A DNA stretch of 64,000 nucleotides from Escherichia coli (GTDB lineage: Bacteria; Pseudomonadota; Gammaproteobacteria; Enterobacterales; Enterobacteriaceae), in the NCBI RefSeq assembly GCF_003334385.1, contig NZ_QOWN01000001.1. One strand, given 5' to 3'. A program made the translations under genes and the position numbers. This document shows positions 38,360 to 39,520 of this stretch, piece by piece. The notes under the pieces were generated by a model. It was not told the origin of the DNA. It saw nothing but the letters and a program-made list of their open reading frames with translations, and did not search any database. The stretch's first letter is position 1. Every line of letters starts with the position of its first letter.

Positions 38360-38662
38360 AACTGTAACCTTCGAATTATGGAGTCAGAGACAATCTCAGA
38401 CACGAATGTCTGTAATCATACCATCACATCCGAATCCCTTCAGCCCTTTACATAGAGGTGCAAGGATGCTAATTGCAACAAACTAGTTTGGGTTTTAGCT
38501 AGTCCTTCATGGCGGATGTTGGTTTTGCATGTGAATAGTGCTTTAGTATCAATATTCCGATGTATGATAAATAACGGAAGCATTTGAATGGATAATATAC
38601 AGTATACATTCTATTAATATTTATGATATAATTCTTTTTTTATATTAATGGTCTTATTAGTA

Positions 38663-39520
38663 ATGAAATCATCCACCACAATTATCACTGCATATTTTGA
38701 CATTGGTAGAGGGGATTGGACTGCTAATAAAGGGTTCCGTGAAAAACTAGCTCGTTCAGTTGATGTTTATTTTAGTTACTTTGAGCGTCTGGCCGCACTT
38801 GAAAATGAGATGATTATTTTCACTTCTCCCGATTTGAAACCAAGGGTTGAAGCGATTCGCAACGGAAAACCAACAACGGTTATCGTTATCGATATAAAAA
38901 AGAAATTTAGATATATCAGAAGTCGTATCGAAAAAATTCAAAAAGATGAGTCGTTTACAAATAGACTTGAGCCTCGACAATTAAAAAAACCAGAGTACTG
39001 GTCACCAGAGTATGTTTTGGTATGTAACCTTAAGGCCTATTTTGTAAATAAAGCTATCAACATGGGCTTAGTGAAAACGCCTCTTGTTGCGTGGATAGAT
39101 TTTGGCTATTGCCGTAAGCCAAATGTAACTCGAGGATTGAAAATTTGGGATTTCCCATTTGATGAAAGTAAGATGCATCTTTTCACTATAAAAAAAGGGC
39201 TTACTGTCACATCTCAACAACAGGTTTTTGATTTCATGATTGGCAATCATGTATATATTATTGGGGGCGCAATTGTTGGTTCACAGCATAAATGGAAAGA
39301 ATTCTATAAATTAGTTCTGGAAAGTCAAAAAATAACACTAAATAATAACATTGTGGACGATGACCAGGGCATTTTTGTCATGTGCTATTACAAACGCCCC
39401 GATCTCTTCAACCTAAACTATCTGGGGAGAGGAAAATGGTTCGATTTGTTTCGCTGCTTCAGGAGTAACACTTTAGGGGCAAAAATGCAGGCGCTGAGAA
39501 TTTTCCTTTCAAGAAAATAG
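38663..39520 (+). CDS. htrL: HtrL/YibB-family protein of unknown function
   Basis: ORF track 38648..39520 (290 aa); ATG at 38663 gives 285 aa; start choice uncertain, neither ATG has an obvious SD. Confidence 0.8.
   Translation: MKSSTTIITAYFDIGRGDWTANKGFREKLARSVDVYFSYFERLAALENEMIIFTSPDLKPRVEAIRNGKPTTVIVIDIKKKFRYIRSRIEKIQKDESFTNRLEPRQLKKPEYWSPEYVLVCNLKAYFVNKAINMGLVKTPLVAWIDFGYCRKPNVTRGLKIWDFPFDESKMHLFTIKKGLTVTSQQQVFDFMIGNHVYIIGGAIVGSQHKWKEFYKLVLESQKITLNNNIVDDDQGIFVMCYYKRPDLFNLNYLGRGKWFDLFRCFRSNTLGAKMQALRIFLSRK

Follow-up and report, generated by a model that had tools for sequence, protein, structure and literature searches.

HtrL (YibB) of the Escherichia coli waa region, a putative GT-A-fold glycosyltransferase encoded on an accessory cassette

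Introduction

The waa region of Escherichia coli K-12 is well studied, and htrL (also called yibB) is among its few genes without an assigned reaction. What kind of protein does this gene encode, and how does it relate to the lipopolysaccharide (LPS) genes beside which it lies? We addressed these questions in a stretch of 64,000 nucleotides of E. coli DNA (assembly GCF_003334385.1, contig NZ_QOWN01000001.1), called the window here. The window holds a K-12-type waa region with the order waaQGPSBOJYZU (+), waaL-waaC-waaF-hldD (−) and kbl-tdh-waaH (+), and htrL is the single open reading frame (ORF), on the plus strand, between hldD and kbl. A preliminary description of this DNA had named the gene, left its start codon ambiguous, found no catalytic motif in it and suggested that it was co-acquired with LPS genes. 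The analysis reported here points to a glycosyltransferase of the GT-A fold, encoded on an old accessory cassette that comes and goes independently of the outer-core type.

Gene identity and start codon

By sequence, the ORF is unambiguously htrL/yibB, an already catalogued E. coli gene. It scores 548 bits against the NCBIfam equivalog NF008462 ('protein YibB', cut-off 342) and 437 bits against TIGR02192 (cut-off 265), and it matches Pfam PF09612 (HtrL_YibB) over model positions 1–267 of 267 with an E value of 3.7e-129. The window DNA is 99.8–100% identical to that of K-12 derivatives, O157:H7 and many other E. coli, where the RefSeq name is 'protein YibB'. The gene name in the preliminary description is thus borne out by the family matches and the DNA identity. 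Its operon name, hldD-waaFCL, is also right for this genome, where waaL follows waaC on the minus strand as in the K-12 core. The gene had further been described as AT-rich and as divergent from hldD over an AT-rich spacer of 288 bp. We measured a G+C content of 37.1% for the ORF (hldD, 50.9%; kbl, 54.2%), and the spacer (38360–38647) is exactly 288 bp long with 34% G+C, or 303 bp if counted to the start at 38663.

Two in-frame ATG codons, at 38648 and 38663, had been put forward as the start. Both are indeed in frame, and comparison with orthologues resolves the choice to 38663, which gives a protein of 285 residues. We assign this start because several observations agree. The RefSeq start corresponds to 38663 of the window (locus position 12304 there), the family profiles begin at residue 6–8 of the 290-residue form, and the close orthologues are all 285 residues long (among them Cedecea, 82% identity; Citrobacter amalonaticus, 80%; Atlantibacter hermannii, 76%). 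In C. amalonaticus, the upstream ATG lies 16 nt, not 15 nt, ahead of the conserved ATG and is out of frame. A. hermannii has no upstream ATG and keeps ATGAAATCATC(C/T)ACC. The 290-residue form starting at 38648 was rejected on this evidence.

Predicted fold and conserved residues

HtrL has no signal peptide and no hydrophobic segment (maximum KD19 1.41), and its isoelectric point is 9.7. A search of 1.84 billion cluster representatives returned approximately 900 relatives. In an alignment of 104 sequences, Y117, W144 and D146 are invariant, and D13, R16, W19, R31, Y36, F40, N48, E111, K124, F147, G148 and D232-D233-D234-Q235 are at least 90% conserved. E. coli HtrL keeps all the near-invariant residues of the family.

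The AlphaFold2 model (predicted local distance difference test, pLDDT, 95.7; predicted template modelling score, pTM, 0.92) predicts a single Rossmann-like α/β/α domain with the strand order of GT-A enzymes. In the model, D13 and R16 follow β1, W144-I-D146-F-G lies at the end of β4, and DDDQ is placed at the N-terminus of the helix formed by residues 234–244. The top Foldseek matches in the Protein Data Bank (PDB) are XXYLT1 (GT8), GT6 enzymes and LARGE1, with template modelling (TM) scores of 0.40–0.47. A structural neighbour list, with which Foldseek agrees, gives the following figures: BoGT6a (GT6) 12.4, ABO GTB (GT6) 12.0, PBCV-1 A64R 11.6, LARGE1 11.1, UGGT 10.6, GT8 members 10.4, LgtC (GT8) 9.9 and glycogenin (GT8) 9.8. 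We take D8, D103-x-D105 and D188-Q189 of LgtC, and D-E-S of GT6, to be the nucleotide, metal/diphosphate and donor-sugar positions that the HtrL motifs match. The preliminary description had reported no recognisable catalytic motif. It was right in that a canonical DXD is missing, but the near-invariant D13..R16, W144-x-D146-F-G and D232-D-D-Q235 fall at GT-A sites of the model. Domain and PDB sequence searches revealed no homology to a characterised non-LPS enzyme family, in keeping with that description.

Proposed function

We consider it likely that HtrL is a cytoplasmic GT-A glycosyltransferase, probably retaining and possibly metal-independent, which adds a single sugar to the core of LPS or to a glycan related to it. 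The identity of the gene, the modelled fold, the conserved residues, the genomic context, the accessory status and the selection on the gene, on which this proposal draws, are directly established.

The enzyme would be basic and cytoplasmic, either soluble or peripheral, and have the GT-A (nucleotide-diphospho-sugar transferase) fold. At the inner face of the cytoplasmic membrane, it would move one sugar from a nucleotide sugar to the nascent LPS core or to a related glycan of the surface. The loop after β1 (F-D13-I-G-R16) would bind the nucleotide, and D146 at the end of β4 would take the place of the first aspartate of DXD. D232-D-D-Q235, at the N-terminus of its helix, would be the counterpart of the donor-sugar motif D-Q-D or D-E-S of the retaining GT8 and GT6 enzymes, and for this reason an α-linked (retaining) product is predicted. 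The conserved R16, R31 and K124 may stand in for a metal ion by neutralizing the diphosphate, since DXD is reduced to D-F-G and no histidine is invariant. In E. coli the gene occupies an AT-rich, self-contained cassette that includes a predicted promoter and a terminator for it. The parts of this scheme that we infer are the catalysis, its stereochemistry, the independence of metal and the acceptor.

Several observations weigh against this assignment. The end of β4 does not carry a canonical DXD; it reads W144-I-D146-F147-G148, and the third position is glycine in 97% of the 104 relatives. A conserved metal-binding histidine is also lacking: 51% of the sequences have H at position 252, where E. 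coli has N. The structural likeness is at the level of the fold only, with TM scores of 0.40–0.47, approximately 10% identity and approximately 170 of 285 residues aligned. Searches of PDB sequences with the single protein and with the 104-sequence profile gave nothing meaningful, and HtrL has no match to Pfam GT8 (PF01501) or GT6. We compared HtrL by hhalign first with WaaO alone and then with a profile of 21 WaaO/WaaJ GT8 sequences. Neither comparison was significant, and the latter gave E 0.054 and a probability of 1% over a block of 46 columns only. The search for homologues had yielded close WaaO orthologues only, and a more diverse GT8/GT6 profile might do better. The non-significant block pairs VYI.GG...W...DDDQ of HtrL with YFNaG...W...DQD of GT8. 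The literature searched gives no enzyme activity, donor or product for any family member and no biochemical function for htrL/yibB. To our knowledge, every known substituent of the K-12 core already has an assigned transferase, and no product is waiting for HtrL. Moreover, the gene is not present in 64% of the complete genomes of E. coli, paralogues that are 53–61% identical lie outside glycan clusters in C. freundii, Salmonella and some E. coli, and the occurrence of the family in Firmicutes, Tenericutes, Bifidobacterium, nematodes and molluscs speaks against a strictly LPS role.

Metal-independent GT-A enzymes exist, and the loss of DXD weakens the glycosyltransferase assignment without excluding it. 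HtrL might instead be a GT-A-like protein of another activity, either a sugar-phosphate nucleotidyltransferase or another nucleotide-dependent modifier in glycan synthesis, such as a transferase of phospho-substituents. We regard this as very unlikely and retain the glycosyltransferase assignment.

Genomic context of the family

The surroundings of the homologues bear on the acceptor. A recognisable glycosyltransferase or LPS gene (GT2, GT4, GT8, GT9 or waaL) lies within 8 kb in 48 of the 70 genome loci analyzed. Providencia rettgeri and the nearest 50%-identity cluster representative have the gene order hldD-waaF-waaC-htrL, with the homologue in fourth place and overlapping waaC by 4 nt. Buttiauxella and Pectobacterium carry it inside the waa cluster. 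Domain fusions also occur in the family, with GT32-type (Caps_synth/Gly_transf_sug), GlcNAc-transferase or methyltransferase partners, and both RefSeq/PGAP and UniProt already use the label 'WlaTC/HtrL family glycosyltransferase'. The association with LPS made in the preliminary description thus stands as far as the loci of the homologues go (48/70); the co-acquisition with LPS genes does not, as described below.

Would the acceptor have to be the LPS core? It could be another glycoconjugate (O-antigen, capsule, enterobacterial common antigen or a glycoprotein), with the position next to hldD being incidental. Such an acceptor would suit the members in Firmicutes, Tenericutes, Bifidobacterium and animals (nematodes, molluscs), all of which lack LPS, the many loci that resemble generic GT2/GT4 polysaccharide clusters, and the enterobacterial paralogues away from the waa genes. 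The closest non-orphan relatives, however, lie within waa core operons (Providencia-like genomes, Buttiauxella, Pectobacterium), a family member belongs to an outer-core locus of Acinetobacter, and the Campylobacter jejuni member lies in the lipooligosaccharide (LOS) locus. On balance, we judge a non-LPS acceptor unlikely and keep the LPS core or a related glycan as the proposed target.

The lone paralogues are flanked by large gaps. They lie by dinI and S24-like genes in C. freundii, by IS1 near icd in E. coli GCA_900448175.1 and near mig-14 in Salmonella enterica. In AFDB50 we found clear homologues with the HtrL fold in nematodes (Caenorhabditis, Haemonchus, Necator, filariae) and in molluscs or annelids. 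These are often fused to other domains (VWFA, metallophosphatase) and show that this mainly bacterial family has a branch in animals.

An accessory cassette between hldD and kbl

The segment that varies between genomes is not the ORF alone. It runs from approximately 38408/38448 to 39690 (about 1.24–1.28 kb). Counting a genome as positive when at least 80% of 38360–39600 was retained, we found the region in 1953 of 5426 complete E. coli genomes (36%), and the remainder match only the first 48 nt adjoining hldD. ST131 has a K-12-type core, lacks yibB and has a distance of 213 bp between hldD and kbl. Its alignment to the window is perfect up to 38407 and again from approximately 39691, with approximately 62 bp in between instead of 1283 bp. 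The 40 nt at 38408–38447 are alignable but diverged in ST131. The left edge therefore lies between 38408, where perfect identity with yibB-minus genomes ends, and 38448, where the diverged but alignable hldD promoter ends. These alignments place the cassette proper at approximately 38448–39690, lodged between the hldD and kbl promoters; we set the left limit near 38448 because 38408–38447 holds the conserved promoter-like hexamers of hldD.

Is the cassette linked to a particular core type? We searched all genomes with a 5.5-kb query from waaL to yibB and sampled the ranking evenly from top to bottom. Among the genomes with the K-12 waaL, 5 carried yibB and 7 lacked it; among those without this waaL, the numbers were 16 and 31. 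There is no association (5/12 versus 16/47 genomes; Fisher p = 0.74). Exact counts, which agree with the sampled totals, show that 451 genomes carry both the K-12 waaL and yibB. Strain VE-T9 has another outer core and a yibB that is 100% identical. The genes hldD-waaFC have an ordinary G+C content. Co-acquisition of htrL with LPS genes is therefore unsupported, given the ordinary composition of hldD-waaFC, the presence in only 36% of genomes, the cases of ST131 and VE-T9 and the Fisher test.

The boundaries of the cassette showed no direct repeats resembling a target site, no terminal inverted repeats and no flanking mobility genes. A direct repeat of 19 nt (38632–38650, TTCTTTTTTTATATTAATG; 39590–39608, TTTTCTTTTTATATCAATG; 84% identical) brackets the ORF and terminator; it lies off the indel boundaries and is probably a chance occurrence in AT-rich DNA. 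In E. coli EM20-18-50 (locus 3494–5417), yibB is split by IS903B; the PGAP label is 'WlaTC/HtrL family glycosyltransferase' for the 5' piece and 'protein YibB' for the 3' piece.

A supplement to PMC11742677 (file 3) lists a cluster of five variants, G>T/C>A, in htrL (MG1655 3786648–3786692), which were read there as multi-drug resistance mutations. They fall within 45 bp and occur in approximately 94% of the antibiotic-selected pools with all three drugs. We consider them a probable systematic sequencing or mapping artefact in AT-rich homopolymer sequence and gave them no weight.

Age and selection

C. amalonaticus and A. hermannii share the order hldD, yibB, kbl, and each of them has outer-core genes of its own. 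Using the Nei–Gojobori method, we compared E. coli with C. amalonaticus and obtained a non-synonymous divergence (dN) of 0.124 for yibB, for which the synonymous divergence (dS) is saturated (proportion of synonymous differences pS 0.73; pN/pS 0.16). The corresponding values are dN 0.020 and dS 0.78 for hldD and dN 0.015 and dS 1.08 for kbl. The gene is AT-rich in E. coli and C. amalonaticus alike (37% G+C). On these comparisons, yibB is an old and fast-evolving yet clearly constrained gene.

Among the marks of horizontal acquisition, low G+C content and presence in 36% of genomes were seen; a link to H-NS comes from a published table only (see below). Any such acquisition must be old, because the slot is occupied in two further genera as well. 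We propose that the presence or absence of the cassette is an old polymorphism with no relation to the outer-core type, and that purifying selection has kept the cassette functional.

Expression of htrL

A consensus scan predicts a promoter for htrL with 10 of 12 matches to the consensus hexamers plus the TG of an extended −10 element (38624–38632). Transcription would start near 38639, leaving a leader of approximately 24 nt in which there is no obvious Shine–Dalgarno sequence. The −10 element is kept as GATATAAT in A. hermannii. Genomic SELEX (systematic evolution of ligands by exponential enrichment) with the RpoD holoenzyme assigned the promoter predicted here, TATACA-18-TATAAT, to htrL (PMC3946193).

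The preliminary description had noted a strong intrinsic terminator, which we confirmed. The hairpin (39564–39595) has a 14-bp stem and a 4-nt loop with a ΔG of −18.6 kcal/mol, compared to −7.0 ± 2.2 for shuffled sequences (z −5.3); 0 of 200 shuffles fold as well. It starts 44 nt past the stop codon, and its AU-rich stem contains only 4 G–C pairs. The 3' arm itself ends in TTTTTTCT, and the stem is followed by TTTTATAT.

In one source, quoted in PMC8303582, yibB carries the annotation 'RfaH-regulated high-temperature protein'. The ops element GGCGGTAG has no match at 38360–38662, even with one mismatch allowed. An exact copy lies at 24153–24160 (+) upstream of waaQ, as expected for JUMPStart. 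The leader sequence thus does not back the annotation as RfaH-regulated. The exact octamer also occurs at 37621–37628 (−), in the coding strand of hldD; it may be there by chance, with seven exact matches in the window. A search of 38200–39900 against Rfam gave only one sub-threshold chance match, to a family of small nucleolar RNAs.

The table in PMC3946193 flags H-NS for the spacer between hldD and htrL and is the sole source of this link. If the flag is correct, laboratory cultures may express htrL poorly. The same work predicts a distal hldD promoter, TTAATA-17-CATAAA, on the minus strand. We mapped it to 38620–38648, back to back on the −10 and start region of htrL. Because this promoter falls within the cassette, part of the transcription of hldD-waaFCL in yibB-plus strains may start inside DNA that yibB-minus strains lack.

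Could htrL be a silent passenger in E. coli that at present plays no part in LPS? The high-temperature-requirement phenotype from which it was once named would in this case come from disturbance of the divergent promoter region of hldD (rfaD/htrM) and not from loss of HtrL. The absence of the gene from 64% of complete genomes irrespective of core type, its disruption by IS903B in one strain, the H-NS flag on the spacer and the overlap of the predicted hldD promoter with the htrL promoter and start region (38620–38648) all fit this explanation. The clear purifying selection (pN/pS 0.16), the intact family-invariant residues, an allele at least 99% conserved over very different lineages (including K-12, O157:H7 and O104:H4) and the occupied slot in C. 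amalonaticus and A. hermannii argue against it. No K-12 core substituent is known to lack a transferase, which would favor a silent gene. Taken together, we think it somewhat unlikely that htrL is silent. The question concerns expression and phenotype, and either answer is compatible with the assignment of HtrL as a glycosyltransferase.

The hldD promoter region and feature coordinates

The CTGAAG/TATGAT pair upstream of hldD resembles a promoter, and both hexamers are kept in yibB-plus E. coli, yibB-minus E. coli, C. amalonaticus and A. hermannii. Between E. coli and C. amalonaticus, the leader and proximal promoter show unusual conservation, with 85 of 87 nt identical despite a pS of 0.49 for hldD. 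The 17-nt spacer between the hexamers is rewritten in yibB-minus E. coli, although the hexamers are kept. The predicted transcription start of hldD, near 38408, is exactly where the 48 nt common to all E. coli begin. Neither the hldD leader nor the htrL leader showed unusual folding (z 0.4 and 0.75, respectively). The coordinates of the features are collected in Table 1.

Table 1. Features of the htrL locus (positions in the window).
Feature	Position	Strand	Remarks
hldD	37427..38359	−	divergent from htrL
hldD 5' leader and promoter-like pair	38360..38447 (leader 38360–38407)	−	bounds the cassette, outside htrL
hldD promoter-like −10 TATGAT and −35 CTGAAG	38420..38415 and 38446..38441	−	17-nt spacer
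Accessory yibB cassette	38448..39690	.	promoter, ORF and terminator; 35.7% G+C, versus 48.7% for the window; lacking in approximately 64% of complete E. coli genomes
Predicted htrL promoter	38603..38632	+	−35 TATACA, 18-nt spacer, extended −10 TGaTATAAT; consensus scan
Upstream in-frame ATG and four codons (MVLLV)	38648..38662	+	rejected as start; part of the short 5' leader
ORF as first called	38648..39520	+	
htrL/yibB coding sequence	38663..39520	+	285 residues and stop; putative GT-A-fold glycosyltransferase, WlaTC/HtrL family (PF09612)
htrL intrinsic terminator	39564..39608	+	14-bp hairpin and T-run; also detected as an inverted repeat
kbl	starts 39795	+	next gene beyond htrL

Significance

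The gene, its family and the label of putative glycosyltransferase are all in the databases already. The present analysis adds the settled start codon, the boundaries of the cassette, its frequency in the population and its independence of the core type. It also adds the synteny in three genera, the purifying selection and a confident GT-A model with a hypothesis at the level of residues (D13, R16, D146, D232–Q235). Should HtrL be active, an LPS modification would be made by K-12 and approximately a third of E. coli strains, among them O157:H7 and O104:H4, and would be impossible for the other two thirds, to which ST131 belongs. Such a modification, if real, could affect recognition by phages, serum or antibodies.

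A further-reaching version of the proposal is that the HtrL/WlaTC proteins are a distinct clade of retaining GT-A glycosyltransferases that work free of DXD and Mn2+, with one aspartate (W-x-D-F-G) and conserved Arg/Lys residues, and that they add an unnoticed, conditionally expressed α-linked sugar to the conserved inner LPS core, with the same type of enzyme in nematodes and molluscs. We offer this version tentatively and consider it rather doubtful. If it were true, it would explain both the independence of the core type and the translational coupling to waaC in Providencia-like genomes.

Comparison with known systems

HtrL/YibB of E. coli K-12 (b3618) is the same gene as the one described here, with hldD and kbl as neighbors alike and no differences. 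In predicted fold, HtrL resembles the retaining GT6 (BoGT6a, ABO GTA/GTB) and GT8 enzymes (LgtC, glycogenin, XXYLT1 and the xylosyltransferase domain of LARGE1), at approximately 10% identity and TM scores of 0.4–0.47. It differs from them in having D-F-G in place of D-x-D and in the lack of a conserved C-terminal histidine.

Within the family, WlaTC of C. jejuni 81116 belongs to the same Pfam/PGAP family and is encoded in the LOS locus. PMC3841222, citing Holden et al. 2012, describes wlaTC mutants as deficient in LOS metabolism and reduced in adherence. Models of C. jejuni 'Protein YibB' match the HtrL model by Foldseek (E approximately 1e-22), but WlaTC is only approximately 25% identical to HtrL and has another genomic context. 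The relatives in Acinetobacter are approximately 40–50% identical. The outer-core locus OCL5 of A. baumannii holds an htrL listed as 'hypothetical' or of unknown function, and OCL13 corresponds to OCL5 minus atrOC1 and part of htrL (PMC4172580, PMC10327509). The OCL5 protein is thus a PF09612 member encoded in a lipooligosaccharide outer-core cluster, and the gene is optional there as in E. coli. In A. baumannii it lies inside the variable cluster, whereas htrL of E. coli stands beside the conserved heptose operon.
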